From Bacteroidales bacterium (GTDB taxonomy: Bacteria; Bacteroidota; Bacteroidia; Bacteroidales; UBA4417): DNA of 64,000 bases. Positions within the stretch are counted from its first letter, which is position 1. Every line of letters begins with the position of its first letter. The notes under the pieces are model-generated. The model did no database searches and had not been told where the DNA came from. It saw only the letters and a program-made list of their open reading frames with translations. The stretch covers positions 13,734-77,733 of the forward strand of contig JBBQUX010000001.1 in assembly GCA_038212135.1 (NCBI GenBank). The letters are read 5' to 3'. Positions 2,126 to 61,643 of the stretch are shown here, in pieces. Both the position numbers and the translations under genes were made by a program.

Positions 2126-4885
2126 CTACTTAAGGTAGTTCTTCCTGAAGAAATTCAGATATCCGTTATATTTTTTCTCGCGGTAAAAAACCGGGTAATT
2201 ATCTATCGAAATTACCATTTGCTTAAAGTCTCCTTTACTTATAGATGCTGTAACATATTCGCTTTTGCCAATGGCATAGTAAAAGTCCATAGCAGCCACG
2301 CTGTTACGGAAACTGCTGATTGATATCATCTGCCATCCGCCGTCGAGCACAATTGCATTTACCGAAAGGTTGGCATTGTTGAAATCTTTTGAAATGAAAT
2401 CGGAAACCCTGATCTTGGTTGCATTCACATTTACATTATTGCCATCAACCATAAGTATATAAAAATGAGTTTGACTGAGGTTAAGTTTGTAGATGTCGGG
2501 AACAACTGTGTCAGACAACTGTAAGAACGGATCGGGTGATGAAGATGATGGAGGAGCAGCTGGTTTGGTGTTCGGCGCATTTGTGTTGGCATTTGCCTGT
2601 GCTGTTGGCGGAGGGGCGTTTTTATCGTATTTCTGCAGTAACTCCTTTGCCAGGGGCGTAATCGGGTGGTTCGGACTCTTCAGTACAAGTTTATTGAGAG
2701 CCACTACCATGGTATCGGTACTTATTGTTTTTCCCAGCGATAATGCCCGCAGGTATTCGAAACGGGGTATGAGGTCCTTGTCTTTGTATTCGCTGATGGC
2801 CTGGTCGCTGTATAGCAATACCATGCGGTACTGGCCTCTTTTGAAGGCCGTATAGGTCTCTTCATAAAGCGTTAACGCACGGTTTTTTCGTGCAAGTACC
2901 TCCTTGTTGTATTCAGGGTCACTGATCATTTGGGCATACTCGGAATCACCGTATTGACCAAGAATAATTTCGCTGTACTTTTTAGCCAGCGCCTCGTCGG
3001 AAATTTCCTTGCCTATCAGATATAACTGGTAGTAAATACGAATAATCTCTTTATTGTCAGGGAAACGCTTTGTGAGTTCCTCGAAGGATTCAACAGAATG
3101 GGGAAAGTCAATCAGCCCGTCTTTATAAATGTAGCCCAGATTAACCAGCGCATTTGCAATAAGCTTGTTGGACGCAGCAATAGCTTCGGGGGTTTTAGGT
3201 ATCTGGGATAAGTATGTTTCGGGACTTTTAGGATCTGTTGAAGCCTTTTTACCACCTGTGGCAGGAGTTTTATTTAGCGAATCAGCAGGCAGTGAAGGAT
3301 CGGGAGGTATTTCATCAAGTTGCGCCACCATACGCTTATTGCTTAGTCTCCAGTTATCTTCCAGTTTGCGGCGTCCCCATTTGCGCATGAACTCCGAAAA
3401 TCCGAAACTGATAGCCGAAGGATTGTAGAAATACCATCCTCCGCCACCGACACCTGCAATATTTTCGTTACGCATGTTCGGTATGCTGCTGATCATAGCA
3501 GTTTCGTTGCGTTGTTGTTCTTCAAGTTCTTTCTGGGCTTCTTCTTCTTTGATCACTTCATCGATGATTTTCTGTATGATCGCTGCCAGCTCTGCTTCGG
3601 GCATCTGAGCCAGTTTCTGAAGGCTATCTTCGTACTGTAGTACACGAAGGTTATTTACCAGGTCGGTTAGTGTAAGTGTCTTTGAACTAATAGCCACGTA
3701 ATCAGGATGCTCAAGAGGAAGAGTTTGCATGGTGGTATCATAGTACATAGCAGCCATTTCATAATTCTGCTTCTTAAATGCCATATCAGCCAGTTGCAGT
3801 GACGATGTTGATTTCTGATAGTCATTCTTTACACTTGTAGCAACCGAAAGTGCCAGGTATTGCATAACAAGAGTATCGTTTTTGTCGAGTATGGCAAGTT
3901 CGGCAAGGGCATAGTATATCTGGTCGAAATACTCTTTGTTTTTTGTGTCCCTTAGCATTTTGTTAAGCTGCTTTTCGAGTTCTGCCTTATTGCCGGTATA
4001 GATATCGAACGACTTGGCCAGGTTGATCCTGGCATTAAAAATCATTTCGAAAGGAGCTGAACTTTTAATTACCTGGGTATAATATTCGGTAGCCTGAGCA
4101 AAATTCTTTTCTTTTTGTGCAATCTGGCCAAGAATAAAATTTATCCTTGCTTTTAGTTTTGGATCGGATGCAAGAGAAAGACCTTGTTTCAGGTTGGTCT
4201 TGGCAGATTCAAGTTTGCCGGTAAGTATATAGTAATCAGCGTACAGAAGTGGTATTTCGCGCTGGATTTTGTAGGGAGGCTTTTGTTTTAAAAACCGTGC
4301 TTCGAATTGCTCTATCTGTAAAGCGGCATCTTCGTATCTTTTTTGTTGAATGAAACTGCGCATGTACCACAAAGAAGCTTCGAGTTCAGTGGTTGTGCCT
4401 GCATATTGCTTCATCAGGTACTCCATGGTGCGGCGCGAATTGGCATATTCCTGCTTATAAAACTGGGCTTCCCCTATAAGCATATAACAATCATCAATCC
4501 ACTTATTGTACTCTTTGTTATCGAAAAACAGCGAATGACGTGGAATGGCTATTCCTGCTTTTTCAATAGCCCTGTCCATGCTGGAATAAATTTTACGTGC
4601 TTCGTCGGCAGTGCCAAAATTATATACTGTGAGAATAGTGTTGTAATTGTCGGCAGCATTTTCTTTCAATGAGGCCTTGCCGGTCTTAAAACTTTCGTTA
4701 CCGTTCCAATAAATGTTATAATGTGTGGTTAGTCCATGATAAGCCCTGCGGGTAAAAGTATTCTTTTTAGTAGAACATGAATACACCAAACCCGCAACAA
4801 GCACAGGTATAAATATAAATTTGAAAAGTACTTTCAATTTCAACGGGGAGAGTTGTGTTTGGTTATCGGATCGCGATTTCAACAA
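2126..4885 (-). CDS. sprE: TPR-repeat lipoprotein, SprE/PorW-like T9SS-associated protein
   Basis: 919-aa ORF with a lipoprotein signal (LVAGLVYSC). The following block CSTKKNTFTRRAYHGLTTHYNIYWNG matches, from memory, the N-terminus of SprE/PorW. The rest is long TPR-like helical repeats with a Pro/Ala-rich linker near the C-terminal domain. Confidence 0.55.
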   Translation of the reverse strand: MLKSRSDNQTQLSPLKLKVLFKFIFIPVLVAGLVYSCSTKKNTFTRRAYHGLTTHYNIYWNGNESFKTGKASLKENAADNYNTILTVYNFGTADEARKIYSSMDRAIEKAGIAIPRHSLFFDNKEYNKWIDDCYMLIGEAQFYKQEYANSRRTMEYLMKQYAGTTTELEASLWYMRSFIQQKRYEDAALQIEQFEARFLKQKPPYKIQREIPLLYADYYILTGKLESAKTNLKQGLSLASDPKLKARINFILGQIAQKEKNFAQATEYYTQVIKSSAPFEMIFNARINLAKSFDIYTGNKAELEKQLNKMLRDTKNKEYFDQIYYALAELAILDKNDTLVMQYLALSVATSVKNDYQKSTSSLQLADMAFKKQNYEMAAMYYDTTMQTLPLEHPDYVAISSKTLTLTDLVNNLRVLQYEDSLQKLAQMPEAELAAIIQKIIDEVIKEEEAQKELEEQQRNETAMISSIPNMRNENIAGVGGGGWYFYNPSAISFGFSEFMRKWGRRKLEDNWRLSNKRMVAQLDEIPPDPSLPADSLNKTPATGGKKASTDPKSPETYLSQIPKTPEAIAASNKLIANALVNLGYIYKDGLIDFPHSVESFEELTKRFPDNKEIIRIYYQLYLIGKEISDEALAKKYSEIILGQYGDSEYAQMISDPEYNKEVLARKNRALTLYEETYTAFKRGQYRMVLLYSDQAISEYKDKDLIPRFEYLRALSLGKTISTDTMVVALNKLVLKSPNHPITPLAKELLQKYDKNAPPPTAQANANTNAPNTKPAAPPSSSSPDPFLQLSDTVVPDIYKLNLSQTHFYILMVDGNNVNVNATKIRVSDFISKDFNNANLSVNAIVLDGGWQMISISSFRNSVAAMDFYYAIGKSEYVTASISKGDFKQMVISIDNYPVFYREKKYNGYLNFFRKNYLK

Positions 4886-43028: not shown

Positions 43029-43053
43029 TTGTCAAATACCCGATCAACCCAAA

Positions 43054-43707: not shown

Positions 43708-43741
43708 TCAGTTCCATTAACCGGAATCATAGATTTTGAAG

Positions 43742-44332: not shown

Positions 44333-44475
44333 ATGTTTAACCAATTTTTTCCTTGTTTTCAAAGTTTTATCACGAGTGGGATCAGGATAGTTTCTTCGAT
44401 CAGGGAATGAATATTAAGCACATACTCGAGTTCAATCAGGCTGAAAAGTGATTTCCGGCGGTTTACCGGATTGCT

Positions 44476-45018: not shown

Positions 45019-45129
45019 TGTAATGTCCGGGTTTAATATAGGTTTTGGTGGTTTGATACATCTGGGTTAGCTATTTCATTAGGGTAAAATTAATTAAAAT
45101 AATTCACTGTCATAAGTAAATTAATATTG

Positions 45130-45137
45130 TAAATTTG
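45130..45137 (+). promoter_or_regulatory. Bacteroidota -7 promoter box (TAnnTTTG)
   Basis: TAAATTTG lies 27 nt upstream of the CDF ATG. Confidence 0.4.
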
Positions 45138-45163
45138 GTTCATAAACTGTCGGAGATATCCTG

Positions 45164-46081
45164 ATGCAACCCAAATCCCTGAAAAAATTTATTTACCTGG
45201 CGATTGCAGCTGCTGTTACTACAATCTCTTTAAAGCTTTTGGCCTACTACCTGACGGGCTCGGTAGGATTGTTTTCCGATGCACTCGAGTCGTTCGTTAA
45301 CCTGATTGCTGCTGTCATTGCTCTTTTTATGATTACCCTGGCCGAGAAACCTGCTGACGAGGAACATGCATTTGGACATTACAAAGCAGAGTACTTTTCA
45401 AGTGCTATCGAAGGTGGTTTGATTGTACTCGCAGCATTCAGTATTATATGGTCGGCTATTCCAAGACTTATACATCCGCAGCCACTCGAAAATGTAGGAA
45501 TCGGGTTGCTTGTTGCTGTGGGAGCTACAGCTATTAACCTTGTGGTAGGATTGATTCTGATTAAGAATGGGCGAAAAAATCACTCCATCGCTCTCGAAGC
45601 CGATGGCAGGCATCTAATGACTGATGTTTATACTTCAGTTGGTGTTTTGATAGGTATTGGCCTTGTGAAACTTTCGGGTTGGCTGGTACTCGACGCGATA
45701 GTCGCTATAGGTGTTGCGTTGAATATATTATGGGCGGGATATCAGCTGATGCGCCGTTCGGCAATGGGTTTGCTCGATACAGGGATACCTGCCGAAGAGC
45801 GTGCCAAAATAATTAAAGCTTTGGAGCCATTAAAATCAGAGAATCTTGATTATCATTCGCTTATGACCAGGCAGGCCGGCCAACGCAAGTTCATAGCGGT
45901 TCATGTGCTGATGCCGGGCCAATGGACCATACAGGAAGGTCACAACAAAGTTGAAAAGATTGAAAAAGACATACGTAATCTTTTTGATTCACCTGTAACC
46001 GTTTTCACGCACCAGGAGCCTATTGATGATGCTATTTCATTCAGTGATATCGGGCTGGACAGGAACGAACCTGCAATCTGA
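45164..46081 (+). CDS. cation diffusion facilitator (CDF) family metal efflux transporter
   Basis: 305 aa, six TM helices. CDF metal-site motifs (SDALESFVN in TM2, HLMTDVYTS in TM5) and a C-terminal cytoplasmic domain. Confidence 0.88.
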
Positions 46082-46275: not shown

Positions 46276-46553
46276 ATTTATGTATTTGATTATTCAATTT
46301 TTAAGAATGGCAATTGTGCTTCTGATAATTATTGTCTTTGAATTGTCCAATTCCAGGCAATTTTCCGGATAGTTTTGTATTACAAAAATCACATATGAAA
46401 ACTTATAAATATAAGAAAATATTTAATAATGAAAAACATTATACTATTAAATTAGTAACAGGCATTAATAAGCGTAACTTTACTCAACTTTAAATTATGC
46501 CATATAGCCATTATTTAGAGTCAAACTATATTCTTGTATCTAAAACATCGGTG

Positions 46554-47843
46554 ATGAAAAAAAAATTCTTTTTATTTGTGCTTGTACCAAGTTTTTTTTT
46601 GTGTTTCTCATGTAAAAAAGAGACCACTACAATTCCTGCAACAGGCGGCGCATATGTTGTATTTGCGTGGAATGACCTCGGAATGCATTGTCTTAATCCA
46701 TCGTACGACGAAATGGTAATCCTGCCTCCTTTTAACACAGTAAATGTACAGGTTGTAAAAAGGGGAGATCCTCCACAAATTATTACCACAGGAATAACTG
46801 TTGAATACAACCTTATTAATAATACTTCGTCTTACGGTAAAAGGTTTTATGGTGGATTCTGGACAAATTTTACCGCTTTGTTCGGAGGTACGCCTCCTGC
46901 AAACAATATTGGGCTTACAGGCACTGCTCTTTCGGGAACAATGACTGCCAAAACCGACCACTTTTCAGCGGAAGGAATGCCTGTTGTTCCGGTGAATGAT
47001 GCCGGAATATGGGACCCTTTCCAGGTTATTGAGGTTAGGGTTAAAGATGCATCAGGTAATTTACTTGCAATAACGCAGGCAACTGTTCCTACTTCCGACG
47101 AAATAAATTGTGCAAAGTGTCATACTGAAGCTACAGGCAGTGTATTTACAAACATATTAAATGCCCACGACGCAGCCCATGGTACCACATTGGTGAACCA
47201 GAAACCGGTTTTATGTGCTAAATGCCATGGCAGTCCTGCCTTGGGTACTACCGGTCCGGGAACATCAGGCAAATATTTTTCACAGGCAATTCATGGATTT
47301 CATGCAACCAAAAGTGCAACCTGCTATGATTGCCACCCCGGAACATCAACCAAATGCAACAGGAGTATTGCCCATGGAGGGAACAATAGCGACGGCTATT
47401 GTACAACCTGTCATGGCGATATGGCAAATGTGGCATCAACTATTGAAAATGGAAGAGTACCATGGGTAACAGAGCCAAAATGCATAAAGTGCCATACTGG
47501 TGTTAGCGGTGTAGAAACAAACACATTGCTTTACCGCAATTCAGTCGGACATGGTAATGTTTACTGTACTGCTTGCCATGGAAGTCCACACGCTATGTAT
47601 CCTTCACGCGAAGCGAAAGACAATTATCAACCCAATCAATACCAGGGTAGCAAAATTAAAACGATCGGGAGTTGTGGCGTTTGCCACGACAGTTCCAAAG
47701 GTGAAGGCTCGGGAGGTGAATTTTCCAGCACACATGGTGGTACAAATCCGGAACATCAGAATACATGTCATGTCTGCCACACGGCCATTTCTTCAAATAC
47801 GGCCAACTGGCCTCATGGTTATTCATGGAAAAATTCAAATTAG
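46554..47843 (+). CDS. octaheme c-type cytochrome lipoprotein (8 x CXXCH), unknown family
   Basis: Start at MKKKFFLFVLVPSFFLCFSC (lipobox). A heme-free N-terminal domain of about 170 aa (WNDLGMHC...) is followed by CAKCH, CAKCH, CYDCH, CTTCH, CIKCH, CTACH, CGVCH and CHVCH. Confidence 0.85.
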   Translation: MKKKFFLFVLVPSFFLCFSCKKETTTIPATGGAYVVFAWNDLGMHCLNPSYDEMVILPPFNTVNVQVVKRGDPPQIITTGITVEYNLINNTSSYGKRFYGGFWTNFTALFGGTPPANNIGLTGTALSGTMTAKTDHFSAEGMPVVPVNDAGIWDPFQVIEVRVKDASGNLLAITQATVPTSDEINCAKCHTEATGSVFTNILNAHDAAHGTTLVNQKPVLCAKCHGSPALGTTGPGTSGKYFSQAIHGFHATKSATCYDCHPGTSTKCNRSIAHGGNNSDGYCTTCHGDMANVASTIENGRVPWVTEPKCIKCHTGVSGVETNTLLYRNSVGHGNVYCTACHGSPHAMYPSREAKDNYQPNQYQGSKIKTIGSCGVCHDSSKGEGSGGEFSSTHGGTNPEHQNTCHVCHTAISSNTANWPHGYSWKNSN

Positions 47844-48067: not shown

Positions 48068-48075
48068 TAACTTTG
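48068..48075 (+). promoter_or_regulatory. Bacteroidota -7 promoter box (TAnnTTTG)
   Basis: TAACTTTG lies 56 nt upstream of the ATG at 48131. Confidence 0.4.
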
Positions 48076-48130: not shown

Positions 48131-49561
48131 ATGAAAAAGCACAGACCCAAATTCATTTTGCTGATGATAGTTCTTTTGCCGGTACTGATGGCATCAGTTA
48201 CATCAGATGAGTATGTAGTATTAAGTTGGAATGATTTAGGCATGCATTGTGCCAATAAAGATTTTTCAACTATGGTAATACTACCACCTTACAACAACCT
48301 GAAAGCGCAGGTAATTAAACGAGGCAATGCAACCACTATGCCGCAGTTAATAACAACCGGTCTCACTGTTACTTATGAAATTCCTGGTAATACATATTCG
48401 GTTGGTAAAACAAATTTCTGGACATATTCGCTAGGTTTGTTTGGCGTTTCTATACCCAATACCGGACTTACCGGTGCCGGATTAACCGGGACGATGGCAA
48501 TGAATACGAATGAATATTTTCAGGATGGTATACCACTTACCCCTTATCAGGATAATAATCTGGTTACAGAATCGCCTTTTCAACTTGCGATGATCAAGGT
48601 GAAAGACGGAGGTGGGAATTTACTCGCACAAACCCAACCAGTAATTCCGGTTTCGAATGAAATTAATTGTGTAAGTGCCGGATGCCATAATAGCGAACAG
48701 GCAATTTTAAATGAACATGAACTGGAAGGTGGTTTTAATCCCAATAACAAACCAGTGAAATGTTCGAGCTGTCACTCCGATAATGCTTTAGGTGCTCCGG
48801 GCGTTCCGGGCTTACCCTCTTTTTCTGAGGTAATCCACAAGAAACACGGCAGCATCACAAATGATTGTTATAAATGCCATCCGGGGCCAAACACTCAATG
48901 CTTTAGGGATATAATGCATACAGGAGGCATGGTTTGCCAGGATTGCCATGGAAATGTTTCACATGTTGGCCAAACTATTCAAAATGGAAGGCAACCTTGG
49001 CTGCAGGAGCCTTCGTGTGGCGAAGCTGCTTGTCATGGTGCTAATTATTCGCCAGAACCAAACAAGTTATACCGTAATTCGAGGGGGCATGCTAATTTGT
49101 ATTGTTCGGCATGTCACGGATCGCCTCATGCTATTGTTCCAACCGAACAGGCAAATGATAACGTTCAGAGCATTGCCGTTCAAGGTTGGGCCGGAACACT
49201 ATCGAAATGCTCGGTATGTCATGGTATTACCCCCAATTTGCCTGGTCCTCACGGGATTATGGGAACCGGTATCATAGAAATAAGCGGGACTGTTCCAAAA
49301 ACCACTCATCTGGATCCTGTTTTTCCTAATCCTGTTAATTCTCAGACCCATATAGGATTAAAGGTAAAAGAAGCCGGAAACATTAAAGTTGAAGTATTTT
49401 CATCAACCGGGAAATACATTGAAACAATTTTCAGCGCTCAGATTACACCCGGTGAATATATAATTGACTTTAATACCGGAAACCTGGCAAACGGAGTTTA
49501 TACCTGCATTATGCTGGCCGGAAAAGCAAAAGACACTAAAAGTTTTATTATCAGCCGATAG
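48131..49561 (+). CDS. multiheme c-type cytochrome (5 x CXXCH plus 2 x CX4CH) with T9SS type A C-terminal sorting domain; paralog of 46554-47843
   Basis: Signal peptide. N-domain colinear with the paralog (WNDLGMHCANKDF..MVILPPYNN). Heme motifs CVSAGCH, CSSCH, CYKCH, CQDCH, CGEAACH, CSACH, CSVCH. The last ~85 aa, FPNPVNSQTHIGLKV...GNIKVEVFSSTGKYIET...ANGVYTCIM...KSFIISR, fit the Por secretion tail pattern. Confidence 0.85.
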   Translation: MKKHRPKFILLMIVLLPVLMASVTSDEYVVLSWNDLGMHCANKDFSTMVILPPYNNLKAQVIKRGNATTMPQLITTGLTVTYEIPGNTYSVGKTNFWTYSLGLFGVSIPNTGLTGAGLTGTMAMNTNEYFQDGIPLTPYQDNNLVTESPFQLAMIKVKDGGGNLLAQTQPVIPVSNEINCVSAGCHNSEQAILNEHELEGGFNPNNKPVKCSSCHSDNALGAPGVPGLPSFSEVIHKKHGSITNDCYKCHPGPNTQCFRDIMHTGGMVCQDCHGNVSHVGQTIQNGRQPWLQEPSCGEAACHGANYSPEPNKLYRNSRGHANLYCSACHGSPHAIVPTEQANDNVQSIAVQGWAGTLSKCSVCHGITPNLPGPHGIMGTGIIEISGTVPKTTHLDPVFPNPVNSQTHIGLKVKEAGNIKVEVFSSTGKYIETIFSAQITPGEYIIDFNTGNLANGVYTCIMLAGKAKDTKSFIISR

Positions 49562-49582
49562 AAATACTAACAGAGATATAAT

Positions 49583-49617
49583 AAAAAAGTCCCTGGAGAG
49601 CATTCAGGGACTTTTTT
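49583..49617 (+). terminator. rho-independent terminator after the T9SS cytochrome gene
   Basis: aaaaaaGTCCCTG-loop-CAGGGACtttttt. Confidence 0.7.
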
Positions 49618-49710
49618 GATGTTGAAAATGTAAGACTCTGAATAAGGATTTTGTAATACATAAACGGGGTAAGATATACTGCTTGCTTGCAAGATTTATT
49701 CCGGGCAAAT

Positions 49711-49767: not shown

Positions 49768-50811
49768 TTATGGCATAACAGGAACCACTTTGGCATCAGC
49801 CGGAACTTCACCTGTCAGTGCTTTCATGAATGCTGTTATTTCACTTGTTTGTTCAGGTGTTAATTCCTTATTTAATTGTCCTTTGGCCATTATCTGAATA
49901 GTTTTGTCCATTTCTTTTATACTTCCATCGTGCAGGTATGGCCAGGTTTCGGCTATGTTGCGCAACGAAGGCACTTTAAAGAAGTATTTGTCAGCTTCAG
50001 TTTTAGTTGCAGCCATTTTCCCAAAATCATCTACGGTGCTCCCTGTGAGCTCTTTATGAGTTCCAAATAAGGGGTATTTCTGGAACATGTTTCCACCTAA
50101 CAACGGACCCATATGACATGCCGTGCAGCCTGTTTCTATAAAGGCTTTGCAGCCTTTCAACTCCTGATCGTTAAGAACGCTAAGGTCGCCGCCAAGGAAT
50201 TTGTCGAATTTACTGGGTGTAAGCAATGTGCGTTCAAAAGCAGCAATGGAATTTCTCATGTTTGTGAACGAAACGGGCTGTTTGTCATCCGGGAAGGCGG
50301 CTTCGAACATTTTCTTATACCCTTCATTTTTGGTCAGCCTTGCCATTACTTCTTTTTCATCGGGCATGCTCATTTCAACTGGATTCATAACAGGTCCGCC
50401 AGCCTGTTCTTCCACATCTTTCATCCTTCCATCCCAGAACTGCACGAAATGTAAAGCAGCATTTAGTACGGTTGGCGAATTTCTGCTTCCTAATTTCCCG
50501 TTATCGCCCGGGCTGGTCGGTTTGTTATCAACGCCAAACGTAGCCAGATTGTGACAAGTGTTACAGCTTTCAGTATTGTTTAATGAAAGCCTGTTGTCGT
50601 AATACAAAGTTTTACCAAGCAACACTTTTTCGGTAGTTACTGCATTGCCAGGATTAACGGCTTCGTCAGGTAAAGGCTGAAACAGGTTTTTAGCCAGCAT
50701 AAGCACTGAGTCAGCATTGAGCCCTGAAACCTGATCTTTGCTCTGTTTGTTGTTACATGCAAATGTGAGAACCACAATTGCGGTAATGACCGGAATAAAT
50801 AGATTTTTCAT
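49768..50811 (-). CDS. ccpA: di-heme cytochrome c peroxidase (CCP/MauG family)
   Basis: Start at MKNLFIPV (signal/lipobox-like TFAC). CNTCHNL and CTACHMG heme motifs, FWDGR, and VPSLRNIAETWPYLHDGS, characteristic of bacterial CCP. Confidence 0.9.
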   Translation of the reverse strand: MKNLFIPVITAIVVLTFACNNKQSKDQVSGLNADSVLMLAKNLFQPLPDEAVNPGNAVTTEKVLLGKTLYYDNRLSLNNTESCNTCHNLATFGVDNKPTSPGDNGKLGSRNSPTVLNAALHFVQFWDGRMKDVEEQAGGPVMNPVEMSMPDEKEVMARLTKNEGYKKMFEAAFPDDKQPVSFTNMRNSIAAFERTLLTPSKFDKFLGGDLSVLNDQELKGCKAFIETGCTACHMGPLLGGNMFQKYPLFGTHKELTGSTVDDFGKMAATKTEADKYFFKVPSLRNIAETWPYLHDGSIKEMDKTIQIMAKGQLNKELTPEQTSEITAFMKALTGEVPADAKVVPVMP

Positions 50812-50885
50812 GATGATTTTTAATTGGTTTAAATTAAGTGATATTATTATTTTTTTGAATTGGATATGACAGTTTATCAAAGTTA

Positions 50886-51608
50886 TTAATCATCGTCTTC
50901 ATCCTTCTCTTTACTATTTATCTGGTTTTTCTGTTCCGGATTTTCTGCTTCAGGAGAGATTTTTTGAGTAGTAATTGAGTATGGGACTATTGCCAAAGCA
51001 GCCAGTATGCCTGTCGCAGCAACAATTTTCTGAAATGAATTCAGCTTGATACCTTCTGCATCAATGTTTTTGTAGCCCGTAAAAATAGATAATAATGTTC
51101 CCGCTTTTTTGTTAAAAATAAAATCAACAATGTTACCGAGCAAATGCGCAATCACAAGCCCGATAAGGATATTCACAGCAATCTCGTGGATTTCTTTTAG
51201 TGAATCTTCTGACAAACCGGTTTGAACGAAAGCAAACAGACCTTGTCCTTCCGATGCCAGCAATAAAATTCCTGATACAACGATTATCAGGCTGAAAATT
51301 ATGATCCCCAACATTACGACCGATGCCGCAGGATTATGACCAGGTGACTGACTCTTACTTTCCTTCATATTGGCAGCAAATTTTTTGAGAGAATTCACCC
51401 CGATAGGGAAATCGCTGAACCTTGAGTATTTTGGGCCGACAAAGCCCCATATTATCCTGAAAATGATCAGTATCCCAACCATATATCCAACGGATGAATG
51501 AAAATTCAGCAATTCTTCTTCGCCTGATAAAATGTAAGCGGCAACCATTCCGATTACCAGAAGCCAATGGAAAATCCGTGTTGGCAAACTCCAGATGTAT
51601 GTTTTCAT
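50886..51608 (-). CDS. cytochrome b561 / Ni-Fe-hydrogenase b-type cytochrome family membrane protein
   Basis: 240 aa. PTRIFHWLLVIGMVAAY, SVGYMVGILIIFRIIWGF and HEIAVNILIGLVIAHLLG provide the conserved His pairs in 4 TM helices. Acidic C-terminal tail. Confidence 0.8.
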   Translation of the reverse strand: MKTYIWSLPTRIFHWLLVIGMVAAYILSGEEELLNFHSSVGYMVGILIIFRIIWGFVGPKYSRFSDFPIGVNSLKKFAANMKESKSQSPGHNPAASVVMLGIIIFSLIIVVSGILLLASEGQGLFAFVQTGLSEDSLKEIHEIAVNILIGLVIAHLLGNIVDFIFNKKAGTLLSIFTGYKNIDAEGIKLNSFQKIVAATGILAALAIVPYSITTQKISPEAENPEQKNQINSKEKDEDDD

Positions 51609-53335: not shown

Positions 53336-54205
53336 ATGAATAAAGCAGTTCACAGAATTTACCTGGCAGGATTATCACTTATAGTATTAATTGCATTTGC
53401 TGCAATTACATTAAAAGGATACCAATATTATAAAATCAGTCTCGAAGAACGTTTTTTTCATCCGGATCATACCATCCTTAAACCAAGTGGTTTTTGGGGT
53501 CATGGAATGGGAATAGTTGGCTCCATTTTTATGATCCTTGGTGTAACCCTGTATATGGCCCGTAAGAGGTACAGAGTATTCTCGCGGTTGGGCTTTTTAA
53601 AACACTGGCTCGAATTTCATATTTTTTTGTGTACGTTGGGTCCTATCCTTGTACTTTTTCATACCGCCTTTAAATTCGGTGGCATAGTTGCAATCAGTTT
53701 CTGGAGCATGGTAGCTGTTTTCCTGAGTGGAATTATCGGAAGGTTTATCTATATTCAGATTCCGCGAACAATCGAAGGACGCGAATTAAGTCTTTCTGAA
53801 GTTAGAGGTATGAAAGGTGATATCGGTAACACATTAAGCCATTCGATTCAATTGGATGAAGGAAGCCGGAATGTAATTGCGGATTCAATAAAGGTAAAAC
53901 CAGAACTTTATCATAGTAATTTCTTTGTACGCACTTTTAGGAAATATGTTGACGACAGAAAGTCACTTGGTAGTGTAAAGACTGTTTTGAAAAAAAATAA
54001 TCTTTCCAAATCGCAACGGATTGAAGTGTTGAACCTTGTAGAAAATGAAATTTCACTCAACAGGAGGATTGAACGGCTTGTATTAATGCAGAATTTATTT
54101 AAATACTGGCACGTGGCACATTTGCCATTTGCCCTGGTGATGCTTGTAATTATGGTAATACATGTTGCAGTTACCATTGTATTTGGTTATAAATGGATAT
54201 TCTAG
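53336..54205 (+). CDS. polytopic membrane protein with paired conserved-looking His residues (unknown family)
   Basis: 289 aa. Four N-terminal TM helices ([23 protein letters not shown]), a soluble loop of about 110 aa, and a final TM segment [23 protein letters not shown]. First gene of the operon. Confidence 0.75.
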
Positions 54206-55542
54206 TTATGGATGAGATGCTTTTAGAGAAGGTGGTTATTTATTCCCTGGTAATTCTGTTTTGCCTGGTTATTGTATTTATTTATTTGCGCAAGCAGAAA
54301 CGGGAATCGAAAAAAGTGGAGGAAAAAATTGTTATTGCAAAACGGGATGGAATGTACGAGCCTGTATCGTTGCACCCGGTAATTGACGAAGGCAGTTGTA
54401 TACGAACTGGTGCATGCATTGCTGCCTGTCCGGAAAAGGATATTCTGGGTATAAAAGATGGTAAAGCAACAACGATAAATGCTTCTAAATGTATCGGACA
54501 TGGGGCTTGTTTCCATGCCTGTCCAACAGAAGCTATAACACTGGTAATAGGTACCGAAAAGCGTGGCGTTGAACTGCCTCATATTAATCAGAACTTCGAA
54601 ACCAATGTTGACGGAATTTATATTGCAGGTGAGTTAGGAGGAATGGGTCTGATAAAAAATGCCGTTGAACAGGGCAGGCAAGCCGTCGAAAATCTGGCAA
54701 AAACCCTTCGCAAAGCGCACCAGGCAACTTACGACCTCGTAATTATAGGTGCTGGTCCTGCAGGAATTTCTGCTTCGCTCACTGCAAAAAAACATAACCT
54801 CAACTTTCTGACTCTTGAACAGGATACCCTGGGAGGAACTGTTTTTACTTTCCCCAGGCAAAAAATTGTAATGACTTCAGCCATGGATCTCCCTCTGTAT
54901 GGCAAAGTGAAATTATTCGAAACCAGTAAACCGGCACTACTTGATTTATGGAATTCAGCACTTACAAAGAATGGCATTAGTATTCAAGAAAACACAAAAG
55001 TAGAATCGATAACAGCCGAAAACGGGCATTTTAATATCGAAACACTTACGGGACAGCATATTACAGCAAAAACCGTTTTGCTGGCCATCGGGCGAAGAGG
55101 TACGCCGCGTAAACTTGGTGTTGAAGGAGAAATGCAGGAAAAAGTAGCTTACCGGCTCCTGGAACCGGAAGATATAAGCGGGAAAAACATTATGGTTGTT
55201 GGCGGAGGTGATTCGGCCATTGAGTCCGCTTTGCTGCTGGCTGATCATAATAATGTTACTCTTTCCTACCGCAGTGAAGCTTTTAACCGAATAAAGCAGA
55301 AAAATAGCGAAAAGATAAAAGATGCCATAATTTCGGGCAAGGTGAAAGTGCTTTTCAACACAAATCCGGTTCGCATTAACAAGGATTCAGTTGTGCTTAC
55401 AACCAGCATGGAAGAGGAGGAACTTTATATTGAAAATGACCTGGTTTATATTTTTGCCGGCGGTGAACTCCCGATTCAATTCCTGGAAAAGGCTGGTATC
55501 CATATCACTAAAAAGTTCGGGGAAGCAATAATGAAACATTGA
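54193..55542 (+). CDS. membrane-anchored 2x[4Fe-4S] ferredoxin-domain / FAD-NAD(P)-binding (thioredoxin-reductase-like) oxidoreductase
   Basis: N-terminal TM segment ([19 protein letters not shown]). Cluster motifs [12 protein letters not shown] and [12 protein letters not shown]. Dinucleotide folds [13 protein letters not shown] and [13 protein letters not shown]. Its start overlaps the upstream gene by 13 nt. Confidence 0.85.
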
Positions 55543-55568
55543 AATTGATATTTTAGGCAAAACTGCAC

Positions 55569-57170
55569 ATGACATTCAGAATTAAACATATTGTAAGTTT
55601 ATTTGCACTGGCAGCTTTTCTCTGCTTTTCAGCAAAAGCTCAGATATCGCCGGGTGAACTTGCCAAAGTGCATTCGCATCTCGAAGGCATTTCGAACTGC
55701 ACAAAATGTCATACGCTGGGCGATAAGGTATCTAATGACAAATGCCTGGCCTGCCATACCGAAATAAAAACCCGCATTGATCAAAAAAGAGGCTACCACT
55801 CATCCCCACAGGTTAAAGGCAAACAATGCGCCAGCTGCCATAATGATCACCATGGGCTGACTTTTCAGATCATACGATTCGACAAGGATAAATTTATTCA
55901 CGATCTGGCAGGATACAAGTTAACTGGTGCTCACAGCAGGAAAAAATGTGAGGATTGTCACAAGGCTGCTTTTATTTCCGATGTAAAAATCAAAGCAAAA
56001 AAGTTTACTTACCTCGGGCTAAAAACTGAATGTCTGGCCTGTCACGCTGATTATCACCAAAAAACACTTTCGACTAATTGCGCCGAATGCCACACGGATG
56101 AAAAGTTTAAGCCGGCATCAAAATTCGATCATAACAAGTCTAAATTTAAATTGGCAGGTAAGCACCAGGATATTGCCTGCGCCGAATGCCACAAGACTTC
56201 GGTAAGGAATGGACAGAAATTCCAGGAATTCAAAGGGGTAAAAGCCACCAACTGTACTAACTGCCACAAAGATGTTCATGACAATAAGTTTGGGCAGAAT
56301 TGTGCTGAATGTCATAATAATGAGTCGTTTACTGTTGTAGGAGGCGTGAAGAATTTCGATCACAGCAAGGCTGATTTTAAACTGGAAGGCAAACATGTGA
56401 ATGTAGCCTGTAAAAAATGTCATAAAGTAAAACTAACAACACCTTTATTCTTTAAACGCTGCACCGAATGTCACACTGATTATCATGGCAAAGAATTCGC
56501 GAAAAACGGCGTTTCTCCCGATTGTTCTGCCTGCCACAATGAGAAGGGTTTTACTGAATTTTCATATACCATCGAGCAGCACAACGCCGGTGTTTTCCCA
56601 TTAAAAGGAGCTCATGTTGCAACTCCATGTTTCGCATGTCACAAAAAAGAGGAGAAATGGAAATTTAAAGAAATAGGTAAAAACTGCAAAGATTGCCACC
56701 TCGACATTCACAATACATTTATCAGCAGCAAGTATTATCCTGAAGCAAATTGTGAATCATGCCACAATCTGAACCGCTGGAGTGCAGTGGAGTTTGACCA
56801 TAAAAAAACACAGTTTGAACTTGAAGGTGCTCATACGAAGCAAACCTGCCGCGATTGTCATTTCAATAAAGAAAAGACGGGACACGCAAATCAAAAATTT
56901 TCAGGATTAGCTACCAACTGCACCAATTGTCATACAGATGTGCATTTCAAACAGTTTGAAGACAATGGAGTCACGGATTGTAAAAAATGCCATAATTCCG
57001 ATTCATTTAAACCCGCTTCAAAATTCGATCACGGCAAAGCGCGATTTTTGCTGGATGGAAAACACGTGAATGTGGCTTGCATAAAGTGCCACAAAGAAGT
57101 AACAGAACAAGGCGTAACTTTTGTATTGTACAAAACAAATAAAACGAAATGCGAAGACTGTCATCTATAA
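55569..57170 (+). CDS. 20-heme c-type cytochrome (cytochrome c3/c7-like, doubled-CXXCH architecture)
   Basis: Signal peptide (..CFSAKAQ). 20 CXXCH motifs in 533 aa, counted by hand. Six copies of the F(D/I)Hx(K)xxFxLxG(K/A)Hx4-5CxxCH module. Confidence 0.9.
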   Translation: MTFRIKHIVSLFALAAFLCFSAKAQISPGELAKVHSHLEGISNCTKCHTLGDKVSNDKCLACHTEIKTRIDQKRGYHSSPQVKGKQCASCHNDHHGLTFQIIRFDKDKFIHDLAGYKLTGAHSRKKCEDCHKAAFISDVKIKAKKFTYLGLKTECLACHADYHQKTLSTNCAECHTDEKFKPASKFDHNKSKFKLAGKHQDIACAECHKTSVRNGQKFQEFKGVKATNCTNCHKDVHDNKFGQNCAECHNNESFTVVGGVKNFDHSKADFKLEGKHVNVACKKCHKVKLTTPLFFKRCTECHTDYHGKEFAKNGVSPDCSACHNEKGFTEFSYTIEQHNAGVFPLKGAHVATPCFACHKKEEKWKFKEIGKNCKDCHLDIHNTFISSKYYPEANCESCHNLNRWSAVEFDHKKTQFELEGAHTKQTCRDCHFNKEKTGHANQKFSGLATNCTNCHTDVHFKQFEDNGVTDCKKCHNSDSFKPASKFDHGKARFLLDGKHVNVACIKCHKEVTEQGVTFVLYKTNKTKCEDCHL

Positions 57171-60010
57171 TCCTGTCGTTGGTACTTTCATTAAGTCTGG
57201 TGGCCCAGAAATCGCCTCATGGTGATACTTTCAAAGCCAATTGCGACGATTGCCATAAAACCGATGGCTGGAAGGTTGATTTTAAAACAGTTTCCTTTGA
57301 TCATAATGGAACAAAATTCCCTCTTGTTGGTCAGCACCAGGCTGTGAATTGTAAGCAATGCCATACTTCACCCGAATTTGCCAAAGCACAAACGGAATGC
57401 AATTCGTGCCATACAGATATTCACGAACAAACGGTTGGTAATGAATGTGCCAGGTGTCATACTCCAAATTCCTGGATGGTAACTAATATAACCCAACTTC
57501 ATCAACAGAGCCGTTTCCCGCTTATTGGCCCTCATACGGTTGCTGATTGCCGGGATTGTCATAAAAATCTTTTATCGGCTACAACTCCGGCATCCCCATC
57601 AGCTTCACTTCTCCGGTTCGATCCTTTAGGTGTCGAATGTTATGATTGTCATAAAGAGGATTATACTACTGCAAAAGAACCTGATCATGTAGCAGGAGAT
57701 TATCCGACAAACTGTATCGAATGTCATACTATTAATTCATTTGAATGGAAAGGAGCAGGCATCAACCATAATTTCTTTCCGCTTGAGGGAGGGCATAACA
57801 ATATTGATTGTAAAAAATGTCATACTTCCGGAACCTATGCAACTATACCTGCTGAGTGTAATTCCTGTCACCAGCCTGATTATACGTCAACTCAAAATCC
57901 CAATCATACTTCACTCAATTTTTCGAATGACTGCAGCAAATGTCATTCCCTAAATCCCGGTTGGAAACCAGCGGAATATTTAGACCATGATGCGCAGTCA
58001 TTTCCAATATATTCGGGAAAACACAAAGGAGAATGGGAAAATTGTTCCGATTGCCATACAAATCCGTCAAATTATGCTCAGTTCACATGTACTGATTGCC
58101 ACGAGCATAACAAAGGTGATACGGACGAACAACATGGAGATGTTAGTGGTTACGAATACAACAGCATGGCCTGCTTTGCCTGTCACCCGACAGGCGATAG
58201 AGAAGGAAGTTTCGATCATAATAAATCAAGCTTCCCCTTAACCGGGGCTCACACCACAACGGCTTGTGCCGATTGTCATACAACGGGATACGCAGGCACT
58301 CCGAACGTGTGTGCAAGCTGCCACATAAATAATTATAATCAATCTACTAATCCAAATCACAAAGCACCCGGCAGTAAGTTTACCGAGGATTGTGCCGCCT
58401 GCCATACTACCAACACCGGATGGAAACCTGCTACTTACCCTGTGCATTCGAACCTTGAGGGAGCTCACGTTCCTATCGCCAACGATTGTGCAGCCTGCCA
58501 TAACGGAAGTTATACAACCTTGCCCTCAACTTGCTACGATTGCCACACTACAGATTATACGCAATCAAATAATCCTTCTCATGCTAGTGCTCAGTTCCCG
58601 ACAACCTGCGCTGATTGCCACACTCAGGCAGCATGGAAACCCGCAACTTTCAATCATGATGGTCAGTACTTCCCAATTTATTCAGGGAAACATAACGGGG
58701 AATGGGATAATTGTTCTGATTGTCATACAAATCCAGCGGATTATAAAGTTTATACCTGTACTTCTGCCTGTCACCTGAAACCAAAAATGGATAGTGAACA
58801 TCAGGGCGTTGGTGGTTATCTATACAACAGCCCCTCCTGCCTGGGATGCCATCCGGATGGAACAGCACAAGGTTTTGACCATAATGCTGCCGGGTTCCCT
58901 TTAACCGGCGGGCATGCGACAGTATTATGCATAAATTGTCATACCAGTGGATATGCCGGAACCTCGCCTGTTTGTGCGGGCTGTCATACTCCTGCTTTTA
59001 ACCAATCTGTTAATCCAAATCATACTTCGCTTGGAATACCTACCGATTGTGCAGCCTGTCATACAACCAATCCGGGCTGGAGTCCGGCAACTTTTGCAAC
59101 GCACAACAATTATTATGTTATTGCCGGTGCTCATGTGCCTATTGCAAATGAATGTGCCACCTGCCATAATGGAAATTATATTAATTCGCCTAATACTTGC
59201 TTTGGTTGTCATGCTTCATCCTACAACCAGACCACTAATCCAAATCATGCTGCAGCGCAATATGCTACTACCTGTGAAGATTGTCACACGCAAAGTGCCT
59301 GGTCGCCATCAACTTTTAACCATAATACCACATATCCGCTAACAGGAGCACATTCAGCAATCGCCAGTAATTGTTCGCAGTGTCATCCGAACGGATATTC
59401 CAATACTCCTAATACATGTGCAGGATGCCACCAAAACAATTATAACCAGGCAACGAATCCGAATCATATTTCTCTTGGAGTGTCCAACGATTGTGCTGTT
59501 TGCCATACAACAAACCCTGGCTGGCAACCTGCTGCCTTTCCGGTTCATAACAATTACTATGTTTTAGCCGGGGCTCACGTATCTGCTGATTGTGCCGATT
59601 GCCACAATGGTAATTATAACACCACACCCAATACATGTGCAGGGTGCCATATGAATGACTATAACCAGACTAATGATCCGAACCATGCTTCGGCACAGTT
59701 CCCGACAAGTTGTGAAGATTGTCATACGCAGACTGCATGGCAACCTTCAACTTTCAATCATGACGGACAATATTTCCCGATTTATTCAGGTAAACATAAT
59801 GGTGTGTGGAATACCTGTTCGGATTGCCATCCTAACTCAGCAAACTATGCAGTATATACCTGCACTACCTCGTGCCATCCGCAGAATTCCACTAACAATG
59901 CGCATAACGGGGTAAGTGGGTACCAGTATCTGAGTAGTGCCTGCCTGAATTGTCACCCTAATGGAAATGGGGATAAGAAGATCTTTATTAATGATATAAG
60001 GAATAATTAA
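57149..60010 (+). CDS. giant multiheme c-type cytochrome (35 x CXXCH plus 2 x CX3CH in 953 aa)
   Basis: Signal peptide MRRLSSIILSLVLSLSLVAQ. Heme motifs counted by hand. Three-fold repeated module (..FPIYSGKH.G.W..CSDCH.N...Y...TCT..CH......H.GV.GY.Y.S..C..CHP.G). Eight copies of CxxCH-x3-[YF]-x5-P-x-H. The start overlaps the 20-heme gene by 22 nt. Confidence 0.9.
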   Translation: MRRLSSIILSLVLSLSLVAQKSPHGDTFKANCDDCHKTDGWKVDFKTVSFDHNGTKFPLVGQHQAVNCKQCHTSPEFAKAQTECNSCHTDIHEQTVGNECARCHTPNSWMVTNITQLHQQSRFPLIGPHTVADCRDCHKNLLSATTPASPSASLLRFDPLGVECYDCHKEDYTTAKEPDHVAGDYPTNCIECHTINSFEWKGAGINHNFFPLEGGHNNIDCKKCHTSGTYATIPAECNSCHQPDYTSTQNPNHTSLNFSNDCSKCHSLNPGWKPAEYLDHDAQSFPIYSGKHKGEWENCSDCHTNPSNYAQFTCTDCHEHNKGDTDEQHGDVSGYEYNSMACFACHPTGDREGSFDHNKSSFPLTGAHTTTACADCHTTGYAGTPNVCASCHINNYNQSTNPNHKAPGSKFTEDCAACHTTNTGWKPATYPVHSNLEGAHVPIANDCAACHNGSYTTLPSTCYDCHTTDYTQSNNPSHASAQFPTTCADCHTQAAWKPATFNHDGQYFPIYSGKHNGEWDNCSDCHTNPADYKVYTCTSACHLKPKMDSEHQGVGGYLYNSPSCLGCHPDGTAQGFDHNAAGFPLTGGHATVLCINCHTSGYAGTSPVCAGCHTPAFNQSVNPNHTSLGIPTDCAACHTTNPGWSPATFATHNNYYVIAGAHVPIANECATCHNGNYINSPNTCFGCHASSYNQTTNPNHAAAQYATTCEDCHTQSAWSPSTFNHNTTYPLTGAHSAIASNCSQCHPNGYSNTPNTCAGCHQNNYNQATNPNHISLGVSNDCAVCHTTNPGWQPAAFPVHNNYYVLAGAHVSADCADCHNGNYNTTPNTCAGCHMNDYNQTNDPNHASAQFPTSCEDCHTQTAWQPSTFNHDGQYFPIYSGKHNGVWNTCSDCHPNSANYAVYTCTTSCHPQNSTNNAHNGVSGYQYLSSACLNCHPNGNGDKKIFINDIRNN

Positions 60011-60020
60011 AGTCTTGATT

Positions 60021-61643
60021 ATGAAACTTATACTTCCTGTATTTTTATTATTGTTAGTTGGTTCTGGCCTGAAAGGACAAACAACCGGCGGAACTAAAGA
60101 AGGGACTGTATCGTATATCACTTCGCTGAGTGTTTATGTGAAATTTGAAACAACTGAAAGTATCTCAGTAGGGGATACCCTGTTTACTTTTAAGGATTCA
60201 AAAATGGTTCCTGCCCTCATAGTAAAGGAACTGTCTTCTATTTCATGCGTTTGTACCCCATTGGTATCAATAAAATTATCATTGAATGATAAAATACAAT
60301 CCCGGCCAAAAATTATAAAACCTGTCGAAAATCAGAATGTTGTGGTTGTGCCTGTCGTGAAGCCAGTGGAGGTGATAACAGATACAGTGGCGTCAAAAAA
60401 AGTAACTCCTGCTGAACCAAAGCAAAGTATCAGCGGACGAATTTCAGTTTCTTCGTATTCGAATTTTTCGAATGTCTCGGATTTTTCCCAACGCATGAGA
60501 TACACTTTTTCGATGAATGCGCAAAATATCAGTGATTCGAAGTTCTCGGCCGAAACTTACATTTCATTTGTGCACAAAATGAACGAATGGAGCGAAGTAC
60601 AGGAAGATATTTTCAATGGATTAAAGATTTACAGCCTGTCGGTCAATTATGCTTTTAACAAGAATAACACTATCTGGTTTGGCCGGAAGATAAATCCACG
60701 TCTTTCGAATGTTGGAGCAATTGACGGGCTTCAGTACGAAACCAAATTCAAATCCTTTACAGCTGGAGCCTTTTTCGGGTCAAGGCCTGATTATATGAAC
60801 TATAGTTTTAATGCCAGTTTGTTGCAATACGGCGGATATTTTAGCCACGATTATTTGAATAAAAAGGGTGGAAGTGCGCAAACTTCTTTGGCTTTTGTTG
60901 AGCAAAAAAATAACGGCAATACCGACCGGAGATTTGCTTATTTACATCATTCCAATTCGCTGCTGCCTAAGCTTTATTTCTTCGGATCTATCGAATTTGA
61001 CCTTTACAACAAAGTACTGAATTCACAGGATAGTTCTTACACCCGGGACTATACGCCCAATCTTTCGAACATATATTTTTCGCTCCGGTACAAAGTGATT
61101 AAGCAATTATCAATATCTGTATCATACAGTGAAAGGCAGAATATCATTTATTATGAAACCTACAAAAGCATCGTTGATCAGTTGCTCGAAGAAGCCACAA
61201 TGAGGGGTTTCATGTTCCAGGTAAACTACCGCCCGATAAAAAACATGACTATCGGTGCAAATGCCGGCTACCGTGTTAGCAAAAAAGATCCTGGGCCATC
61301 AAAAAACCTATATACTTACCTCACATACAGCAATGTGCCCTGGATTAATGCTTCCGCAACTATTTCGGCCACCTTGTTGCAAACAAGCTATCTTTCGGGA
61401 AACATATATAGTTTCGGCCTTTCACGTGACCTGGTGCCGGGCAAGTTATACGGCGGAGTTAGTTACAGACACGTAAACTATAAATTCCAGAGCGCAGAGA
61501 CTCCCTTAATTCAGAATATGGGTGAGATGAACCTGACCTGGCGAATTATGAAGAAACTTTCGCTTTCAGCTAATTATGAAGGCACCTTTGAAAAGGGAAG
61601 AAACTACGATCGTATCTATATTAATCTTACGCAACGTTTCTAA
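60021..61643 (+). CDS. predicted outer-membrane beta-barrel protein (unknown family)
   Basis: Signal peptide MKLILPVFLLLLVGSGLKGQ. N-terminal soluble domain of about 130 aa, then a long alternating hydrophobic/aromatic strand pattern with frequent Y/F/G/N/S. The terminal residue is Phe (...YINLTQRF), the classic OMP C-terminal signature. Starts 10 nt after the giant cytochrome gene. Confidence 0.65.
   Translation: MKLILPVFLLLLVGSGLKGQTTGGTKEGTVSYITSLSVYVKFETTESISVGDTLFTFKDSKMVPALIVKELSSISCVCTPLVSIKLSLNDKIQSRPKIIKPVENQNVVVVPVVKPVEVITDTVASKKVTPAEPKQSISGRISVSSYSNFSNVSDFSQRMRYTFSMNAQNISDSKFSAETYISFVHKMNEWSEVQEDIFNGLKIYSLSVNYAFNKNNTIWFGRKINPRLSNVGAIDGLQYETKFKSFTAGAFFGSRPDYMNYSFNASLLQYGGYFSHDYLNKKGGSAQTSLAFVEQKNNGNTDRRFAYLHHSNSLLPKLYFFGSIEFDLYNKVLNSQDSSYTRDYTPNLSNIYFSLRYKVIKQLSISVSYSERQNIIYYETYKSIVDQLLEEATMRGFMFQVNYRPIKNMTIGANAGYRVSKKDPGPSKNLYTYLTYSNVPWINASATISATLLQTSYLSGNIYSFGLSRDLVPGKLYGGVSYRHVNYKFQSAETPLIQNMGEMNLTWRIMKKLSLSANYEGTFEKGRNYDRIYINLTQRF

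Follow-up and report, generated by a model that had tools for sequence, protein, structure and literature searches.

A heptaheme c-type cytochrome with a type IX secretion sorting domain in a Bacteroidales genome: a candidate for extracellular electron transfer

The 64-kb stretch of DNA analysed here (hereafter the window; 64,000 nucleotides, contig JBBQUX010000001.1 of a Bacteroidales bacterium of the lineage UBA4417) carries, at 48131-49561 on the plus strand, a gene for a c-type cytochrome with seven heme motifs and the type A C-terminal domain (CTD) of proteins exported by the type IX secretion system (T9SS). A sequence-only reading of the same DNA had proposed that the heme-loaded protein would be delivered by the T9SS to the outer face of the cell. 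Extracellular electron transfer is known almost wholly from Shewanella and Geobacter, where it involves surface lipoproteins or filaments and type II secretion. Here, we describe the gene, its protein family and its genomic neighbourhood, and weigh where its product may work.

The heptaheme cytochrome gene and its product

The open reading frame (ORF) is intact, with its stop codon included, and encodes a product of 476 residues. Its closest orthologs (80-82% identity) are found in metagenome-assembled genomes (MAGs) of Lentimicrobiaceae and other Bacteroidales. The gene is divided as follows, with an AlphaFold2 (AF2) model and its per-residue confidence (pLDDT) as part of the evidence:

48131..49561 (+), heptaheme c-type cytochrome gene with a T9SS type A CTD
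48131..48199 (+), Sec signal peptide of the signal peptidase I (SPI) type, residues 1-23, by direct reading
48200..48655 (+), N-terminal beta-sandwich domain, residues 24-175, all-beta in the AF2 model, pLDDT about 95
48656..49270 (+), heptaheme domain, residues 176-380, from heme motifs and conservation
49271..49318 (+), variable linker, residues 381-396, the presumed region of CTD cleavage
49319..49558 (+), T9SS type A sorting domain, residues 397-476, PF18962 and TIGR04183, with FPNPV..., NGVYTC and KSFIISR

The N-terminus, MKKHRPKFILLMIVLLPVLMA followed by SV, has on direct reading the layout of a Sec/SPI signal, namely a basic n-region, a 14-residue hydrophobic core and small residues, with probable cleavage after LMA (about residue 21) and no lipobox Cys. 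AF2 predicted a helix at residues 5-19, within the signal, and close orthologs keep this N-terminus as MKKHRxKF...MASVTSDE. The sequence-only reading had counted a Sec signal and seven heme motifs, which is right, although two of the seven are of the non-canonical form CX4CH and five are CXXCH. The motifs of the heme domain are C180-x4-CH186 (CVSAGCH), C211xxCH215, C246xxCH250, C269xxCH273, C296-x4-CH302 (CGEAACH), C325xxCH329 and C360xxCH364, and H196, H236, H239, H320, H333 and H374 are candidate distal ligands within the same domain, which had only weak Pfam matches, to Cytochrome_C7 and c3_2. The AF2 model was confident (pLDDT 91.8 over the whole protein, 91.2 when the core was modelled alone); in it, a beta-sandwich is followed by a heme domain poor in helices, then by the linker and by the CTD, which is again a beta-sandwich.

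The C-terminal sorting domain and the secretion machinery

When the tail was scored with the two T9SS profile hidden Markov models, a check proposed in the sequence-only reading, it exceeded both cutoffs. PF18962 matched residues 397-474 over profile positions 1-75 of 75 with 36.6 bits (gathering cutoff 27), and TIGR04183 of NCBIfam scored 27.6 bits on the whole protein and 32.4 bits on the last 86 residues alone (cutoff 23). The domain lies at the extreme C-terminus, the match ending at residue 474 of 476, and was modelled by AF2 as a beta-sandwich of six to seven strands at pLDDT 88-96 (strands 405-412, 416-424, 429-438, 441-448, 455-463 and 466-474). Both profile matches, the C-terminal position and the Sec signal, which are the sequence-level marks of T9SS type A cargo, are all present in the heptaheme protein, and surface delivery by the T9SS is, at this level, supported.

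The tail had also been likened to that of a nuclease at 25435-26556. The two CTDs do align (BLASTP 33.9 bits, E 2e-8, 25% identity), but the nuclease label is weak: this minus-strand ORF scored 16.2 bits for S1-P1 nuclease and 17.7 bits for Zn_dep_PLPC, both under cutoff, and its CTD passed TIGR04183 (31.6 bits) and failed Pfam (19.8 bits against 27).

The CTD shares 64-72% identity with those of the four closest orthologs, and its dN/dS is about 0.08-0.19, ratios that are approximate and of qualitative use only since dS is saturated. Among the same orthologs, the 16-residue linker is 38-50% identical, against 81-90% for the core. This pattern indicates that the CTD is under purifying selection and that the linker preceding it is free to vary, and removal of the CTD would be expected within this variable linker (residues 381-396).

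The window contains six T9SS components and three predicted T9SS cargos, the latter being the heptaheme protein, the 25435-26556 product and a type B protein:

2126..4885 (-), PorW/SprE, NF052312, 661 bits against a cutoff of 250
9196-13986 (-), T9SS type B cargo, 1595 residues, TIGR04131 47.8 bits against 35
16806-17759 (+), porP/sprF, NCBIfam 240.7 bits, well over cutoff
17985-19343 (+), gldK, NCBIfam 576.4 bits, well over cutoff
19435-20478 (+), gldL, NCBIfam 225.5 bits, well over cutoff
20530-22086 (+), gldM, NCBIfam 383.8 bits, well over cutoff
22202-23056 (+), gldN, NCBIfam 238.3 bits, well over cutoff

The porP-gldKLMN block is therefore complete, as had been claimed; the word reaches no further than this block, since SprA/Sov, PorV, PorU and PorZ lie outside the window.

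Conservation of the heme core

The 396-residue region without the CTD, searched against cluster representatives, matched 1659 clusters at E<=1e-3, 335 of them also at E<=1e-30. We aligned 80 representatives that are 36-56% identical to the window protein. The core spans about 370 residues within family proteins of 390-1250 residues, and database labels of the members read 'hypothetical protein' or 'T9SS type A sorting domain-containing protein'. The core family is large, unnamed and, judged from the PDB and Foldseek searches (below), without a solved relative.

The 5+2 arrangement of heme motifs is not a chance pattern, because exactly five CXXCH and two CX4CH occur in 120/120 of the closest homologs and all 21 motif Cys and His residues are invariant across 80/80 representatives. 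Exactly seven non-motif His residues are conserved at 95-100%. Six of them (H196, H236, H239, H320, H333 and H374) lie in the heme domain and are present in 79-80 of the 80 representatives, and the seventh, H39, lies in the near-invariant WNDLGMHC loop of the N-terminal domain (His39, Cys40), in which G37, M38 and H39 are each conserved at 95% or more. The seven extra His thus provide one candidate sixth ligand per heme, as expected of low-spin electron-transfer hemes rather than of a catalytic site. This suggests that all seven hemes are bis-His ligated and electron-transferring, with no open catalytic site.

Cys40 of the same loop varies together with Cys257 of the heme domain: both are present in 70/80 representatives and both are missing in eight, and the two exceptions are N-terminally truncated (Fisher p 1.6e-9, uncorrected for phylogeny). 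The simplest reading is a Cys40-Cys257 disulfide that would tie the beta-sandwich to the heme domain, which fits an extracytoplasmic protein.

Tail domains of the family and a survey of CTD-bearing cytochromes

PF18962 is carried by about 105 of the 120 closest homologs (manual count), and the CTD is kept by most orthologs labelled Bacteroidota or Calditrichota and by one 'Chlorobiota' MAG. Other tails are found elsewhere in the family. Some Bacteroidales orthologs or paralogs end in dockerin-like or unidentified C-terminal domains, and dockerin-type tails occur in orthologs from Ignavibacteria and Zixibacteria (at locus L054, Dockerin_1 30.3 bits against 22.9). Among the 80 representatives, the core is fused to Por_Secre_tail (14/80), FlgD_ig, fn3, SLH (S-layer homology), dockerin, cohesin, CARDB, Big_7 and other Ig-like domains. 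Where the CTD is absent, other display modules replace it, which gives an independent argument that the core works outside the cell; one core joined to many alternative display modules would be expected of a protein that works outside in different envelopes.

These tails bear on the possibility that the protein is a periplasmic electron carrier, as most multiheme cytochromes are, and that its CTD is a vestigial or repurposed Ig-like domain with no role in export. The profile scores are moderate, exceeding their cutoffs by 9.6 and 4.6 bits, as this explanation would have it. However, the CTD is retained in most close homologs and in most Bacteroidota and Calditrichota orthologs, is under purifying selection, matches the full profile at the extreme C-terminus and is elsewhere swapped for other surface-display modules rather than simply lost, and T9SS genes are present in the window. 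We consider a periplasmic carrier very unlikely.

Different tails also occur side by side. Tandem pairs of family members with differing tails were found at five homolog loci (L005, L009, L022, L031 and L035), and the window holds such a neighbour upstream of the heptaheme gene:

46497..47843 (+), octaheme paralog with the same beta-sandwich and heme core, 43-47% identical, no CTD

This paralog has eight CXXCH motifs, with an extra C-terminal heme that has the motif WPHGYSWKNSN, and matches the Pfam model MtrC/MtrF_II-IV with 34.3 bits (cutoff 30). Its N-terminus reads like that of a lipoprotein (reading only), with a probable start at M20 (46554) and ...FFLCFSC followed by KKE.

Type A CTD cargo is in some Bacteroidota released to the medium and not anchored, so the 'outer face' proposed earlier could also mean the medium. 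A T9SS-secreted but released cytochrome might serve as a soluble electron shuttle, belong to a conductive matrix of the biofilm or polymerise into filaments. The dockerin and cohesin modules on relatives suggest assembly onto extracellular scaffolds, in line with such a role, and paralogs with different tails often lie in tandem (L005, L009, L022, L035 and the octaheme paralog of the window). Against the filament version, the protein shares no sequence or fold similarity with OmcS, OmcE or OmcZ, its best PDB profile matches being ActA (E 1.3e-4) and NrfA (3.9e-4); as for release in general, sequence alone cannot separate an anchored from a released protein. A released form seems to us distinctly unlikely.

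A second, unrelated octaheme cytochrome, similar to c554/MtrC, adjoins a homolog in a Calditrichaceae genome (L012:15836-17356, +) and likewise bears a CTD (PF18962, 44.2 bits). When its family was searched without the CTD, 1782 matches were obtained, and PF18962 was present in 116 of the best 120 (manual count). A JGI annotation in this family reads 'type IX secretion system substrate protein/cytochrome c554/c'-like protein', so that automated annotation already prints T9SS and cytochrome labels together for such proteins. The survey of CXXCH-rich proteins with T9SS CTDs that the sequence-only reading had called for therefore finds them to be common, with about 105/120 and 116/120 in two families. 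By these counts, the combination of a multiheme cytochrome with a CTD recurs among lineages of the Fibrobacterota-Chlorobiota-Bacteroidota (FCB) group that bear a T9SS.

The sequence-only reading had been aware of no characterised example of a T9SS-exported cytochrome, and full-text searches of the literature library used here likewise returned no paper that connects multiheme cytochromes or extracellular electron transfer with the T9SS, Por or type IX secretion. In the Melioribacter genome paper, Por domains are mentioned for carbohydrate-active enzymes only, and the Labilibaculum papers tentatively assign metal reduction to NrfHA.

Transcription unit and genomic neighbourhood

Signals for transcription were found on both sides of the heptaheme gene:

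48068..48075 (+), promoter-like motif TAACTTTG, which fits the Bacteroidota -7 consensus TAnnTTTG, read directly
49582..49618 (+), intrinsic terminator, a hairpin with a T-run, 21 nt past the stop codon

The motif TAACTTTG sits 56 bp 5' of the ATG, inside a 287-bp AT-rich spacer; with six specified bases in AT-rich DNA, the match could be due to chance. A sigma-70 consensus scan showed no excess over shuffles. The terminator hairpin was missed by a scan limited to loops of 8 nt or fewer and was detected by direct folding (-22.5 kcal/mol, z-score -7.2), a value matched by 0/200 shuffles. The heptaheme gene looks monocistronic, with a transcription unit of its own.

Downstream lies a group of genes resembling an electron conduit across the outer membrane:

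53336..61643 (+), five-gene module, 3.8 kb downstream of the heptaheme gene, its candidate electron supplier
53336-54205 (+), module gene 1, membrane protein of 289 residues
54193-55542 (+), module gene 2, FeS/FAD oxidoreductase
55569-57170 (+), module gene 3, 20-heme cytochrome
57149-60010 (+), module gene 4, cytochrome with 35 CXXCH and 2 CX3CH
60015-61643 (+), module gene 5, putative outer-membrane barrel of 542 residues, signal-bearing

The last product is a putative barrel by its signal peptide, its terminal ...LTQRF and its position in the cluster. The order of the module genes is kept in 24 of 31 Bacteroidota loci. In the Calditrichaceae locus L034, a heptaheme-CTD ortholog lies directly 5' of a module of this kind and is co-oriented with it, so that the linkage is recovered in a second phylum. 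Four genomes contain both the heptaheme gene and the module, and the link between the two is loose. A 244-residue ORF without an NCBIfam match (61701-62435, +) lies 3' of the barrel gene, a position that is kept in several related loci.

Bacteroidota, Lentimicrobium among them, are found repeatedly in anaerobic digesters and in bioelectrochemical systems. Lentimicrobium and similar Bacteroidota also recur in conductive-particle consortia, and a Lentimicrobium MAG recovered only in conductive-carbon incubations encodes a giant cluster of porin and multiheme cytochrome genes, comparable to the module and with no synteny or family match to characterised conduits; secretion is unmentioned in that report (PMC13013709).

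On the opposite strand, the heptaheme gene has neighbours of a different kind. The region 49768-51608 (-), converging on it, encodes a di-heme peroxidase of the CCP/MauG/MbnH family (PF03150, 177 bits) with a lipoprotein-like signal, and next to it a cytochrome b561 (PF01292, 90.8 bits). A trio of b561, CDF and small-ORF genes adjoins the multiheme module in the Lentimicrobiaceae loci L082-L089. Genes for metal homeostasis lie around the cytochrome gene:

41288-42103 (-), ZIP transporter
42093-42971, ORF without a family match, between the ZIP and MntR-like genes
43018-43707 (+), MntR/DtxR-like regulator, 153.8 bits, below the cutoff of 350
45164-46081 and 51654-52514, CDF transporters

The metal cluster (41288-46081) also holds a LuxR-type regulator (-) and a weak RIC/hemerythrin-like protein (-). 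Further upstream in the window are two minus-strand ORFs without an NCBIfam match, 35469-37862 (797 residues) and 38702-39850 (382 residues).

These neighbours raise the possibility that the T9SS-exported, extracellular or surface cytochrome serves metal acquisition or redox protection and not respiration, either as an assimilatory reductase of Fe(III)/Mn(IV) that would supply uptake by ZIP or Feo, or by handling oxidants together with the adjacent di-heme peroxidase. In its favour, the ZIP gene, the MntR/DtxR-like regulator and two CDF genes surround the cytochrome gene, and the genes for the peroxidase and b561 abut it on the opposite strand. The trio of the MntR-like gene, the 42093-42971 ORF and the ZIP gene recurs directly 3' of a 55%-identical homolog in L020, CDF genes are near homologs in L002 and L015, and FeoAB lies 6 kb from a homolog in L081. 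Nevertheless, such associations occur in about 4-5 of ~80 loci, all of them in Bacteroidales, and may be inherited synteny. The neighbours are on other strands or in separate units, the cytochrome gene has its own terminator, seven hemes would be a large investment for an assimilatory reductase, and the only linkage seen across phyla is that with the multiheme/barrel module (L034). A role in metal acquisition or redox protection is, in our view, unlikely.

Proposed path of export and electron transfer

We favour, with a little better than even confidence, the reading that the gene at 48131-49561 encodes an extracellular electron-transferring heptaheme c-type cytochrome that leaves the cell via the T9SS. 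T9SS cargo crosses the inner membrane through Sec, folds in the periplasm, is recognised by its CTD and passes a wide outer-membrane translocon, after which the CTD is removed and the protein is attached to a surface glycolipid or released. Heme attachment to c-type cytochromes is also periplasmic, so that neither the order of steps nor the compartment sets the two pathways at odds. From the motifs, the CTD, the T9SS genes, the anatomy of the family and the linkage to the module, we infer a path of heme loading, secretion, anchoring and electron flow as follows. The protein would be exported by Sec through its N-terminal signal, and its seven hemes would be attached covalently in the periplasm by the cytochrome c maturation system of the host. 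There the beta-sandwich and the heme domain would fold, probably stapled by the Cys40-Cys257 disulfide. The T9SS would then recognise the type A CTD and carry the folded holo-protein across the outer membrane, where the CTD would be cut off in the linker around residues 381-396, leaving a mature cytochrome of ~40 kDa attached to the surface or released. Finally, the hemes would relay electrons, in either direction, between the cell and outside acceptors or donors, for which Fe(III)/Mn(IV) minerals, humics, conductive particles and partner cells are candidates. The likeliest source of electrons would be a trans-outer-membrane conduit such as the module of the 20-heme and 35-heme cytochromes and the putative barrel.

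Evidence against the proposed path and search for structural relatives

A number of results weigh against this proposal. SprA/Sov, PorV, PorU and PorZ are absent from the 64-kb window, and a working T9SS is an assumption. To our knowledge, the characterised T9SS cargos are proteases, glycosidases, adhesins and S-layer proteins, and we know of none with covalently bound heme. The bis-His assignment draws on conservation counts and not on a holo-structure, and the saturated dS makes the case for selection on the CTD a qualitative one. Structural relatives were not recovered: the best match of the heptaheme protein in a sequence search of the PDB was irrelevant (E 0.059), and a profile search against the PDB gave local, motif-level matches only (ActA 1.3e-4, NrfA 3.9e-4 and MtrF 0.16). 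With Foldseek, the full AF2 model gave Ig-like local matches only (TM score < 0.2) and the core-only model nothing at E<=1e-3, the apo AF2 model of the heme domain being a poor query. The putative barrel ORF at 60015-61643 had no match in Pfam, NCBIfam or the PDB and belongs to no recognisable family. Besides the window, a close relative (L002/L089, ~22 kb apart) and L034, the heptaheme gene lies within 10 kb at 0 of 31 conduit loci. When ORFs were called at 80 homolog loci and clustered all-against-all, no conserved functional partner was found, the largest neighbour cluster being present in 8/80; the recurring neighbours examined were lineage-specific housekeeping genes (sigma-54 activator, FabG, PheT, GroEL and glycogen phosphorylase). 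Because the neighbours are not conserved, context cannot define the function of the protein, except in the window and in L034.

The weak local profile matches to NrfA and ActA, together with the extreme conservation of the WNDLGMHC loop, could be taken to mean that the protein is a catalytic multiheme oxidoreductase of some soluble compound, for example nitrite, hydroxylamine, sulfite or tetrathionate, in which the N-terminal beta-sandwich contributes to the active site. But the NrfA matches cover the spacing of heme motifs only, the seven non-motif His match the seven hemes and leave no obviously open coordination site, no CXXCK is present, and no curated NrfA, HAO or OTR model was matched. 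We regard an enzyme of this kind as highly improbable.

Membership of known cytochrome classes was also considered. The catalytic reductases NrfA, HAO, OTR and MccA were rejected: there was no NCBIfam or Pfam match and no CXXCK, and every heme has a candidate sixth His. The MtrC/OmcA family was rejected for a protein that has seven hemes and no lipobox and matches neither TIGR03507 nor MtrC-MtrF_II-IV at E<=0.01. The Pfam model of MtrC/MtrF domain II/IV is matched by 35/80 family representatives and by the octaheme paralog, and not by the window protein. The nanowire cytochromes OmcS, OmcE and OmcZ were not among the PDB sequence, profile or Foldseek matches.

Implications

Beyond the single gene, we tentatively propose, with rather less than even confidence, that, in FCB lineages with a T9SS such as Bacteroidota and Calditrichota, this system is the general route by which extracellular multiheme cytochromes are exported, and that the heptaheme core represents a structurally new class of terminal surface reductase whose anchor has been swapped among T9SS CTD, dockerin, SLH and lipid. 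If the T9SS is indeed a general route, extracellular electron transfer in bacteria abundant in sediments, digesters and groundwater would depend on it.

If the export and function proposed for the heptaheme protein are true, they would add a new class of T9SS cargo, a redox protein covalently loaded with its cofactor, and would provide a concrete export route for electroactivity across a superphylum. A multiheme core combined with PF18962 would then serve as a genomic marker for extracellular cytochromes in metagenomes, for which current predictors rely on proteobacterial models. Attention would also be drawn to a large cytochrome family without a solved relative, which its conserved core and exchangeable anchors make a good subject for structural studies and for the engineering of surface display.

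Comparison with known systems

Like OcwA of Thermincola, a surface cytochrome of the Gram-positive or monoderm type, and the nanowire cytochromes OmcS, OmcE and OmcZ, which are likewise extracellular multiheme proteins proposed as terminal reductases, the window protein is predicted to work outside the cell, and some relatives of its core carry SLH domains, as do wall-anchored proteins; a sequence or fold relationship to these cytochromes was undetected.

With T9SS type A cargo such as gingipains and ChiA, it shares the Sec signal and a C-terminal beta-sandwich sorting domain of ~80 residues, whose sequence shows, on reading, PxP, GxY and K-x-hydrophobic end motifs. What differs is the passenger, a multiheme c-type cytochrome that would require covalent insertion of its cofactor in the periplasm before export.

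The module at 53336-61643 shares the logic of the Geobacter OmbB-OmaB-OmcB and ExtABCD conduits and of Shewanella MtrAB, in that a periplasmic multiheme cytochrome, a large multiheme cytochrome and a putative barrel are combined, although it has no synteny or family match to characterised porin-cytochrome conduits. In contrast to the components of those conduits, the heptaheme gene is a separate transcription unit that mostly does not adjoin the module, and its product could be an extracellular partner of such conduits.

In predicted role, the protein parallels Shewanella MtrC, OmcA and MtrF, which are cell-surface bis-His multiheme cytochromes built of beta-domains and heme domains. These proteins have 2x5 hemes and two beta-barrels, whereas the window protein has seven hemes in one domain and one beta-sandwich. 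It is, moreover, a non-lipoprotein with predicted export by the T9SS rather than by type II secretion. The heptaheme protein would thus work like MtrC and OmcA while reaching the surface by a different secretion system.

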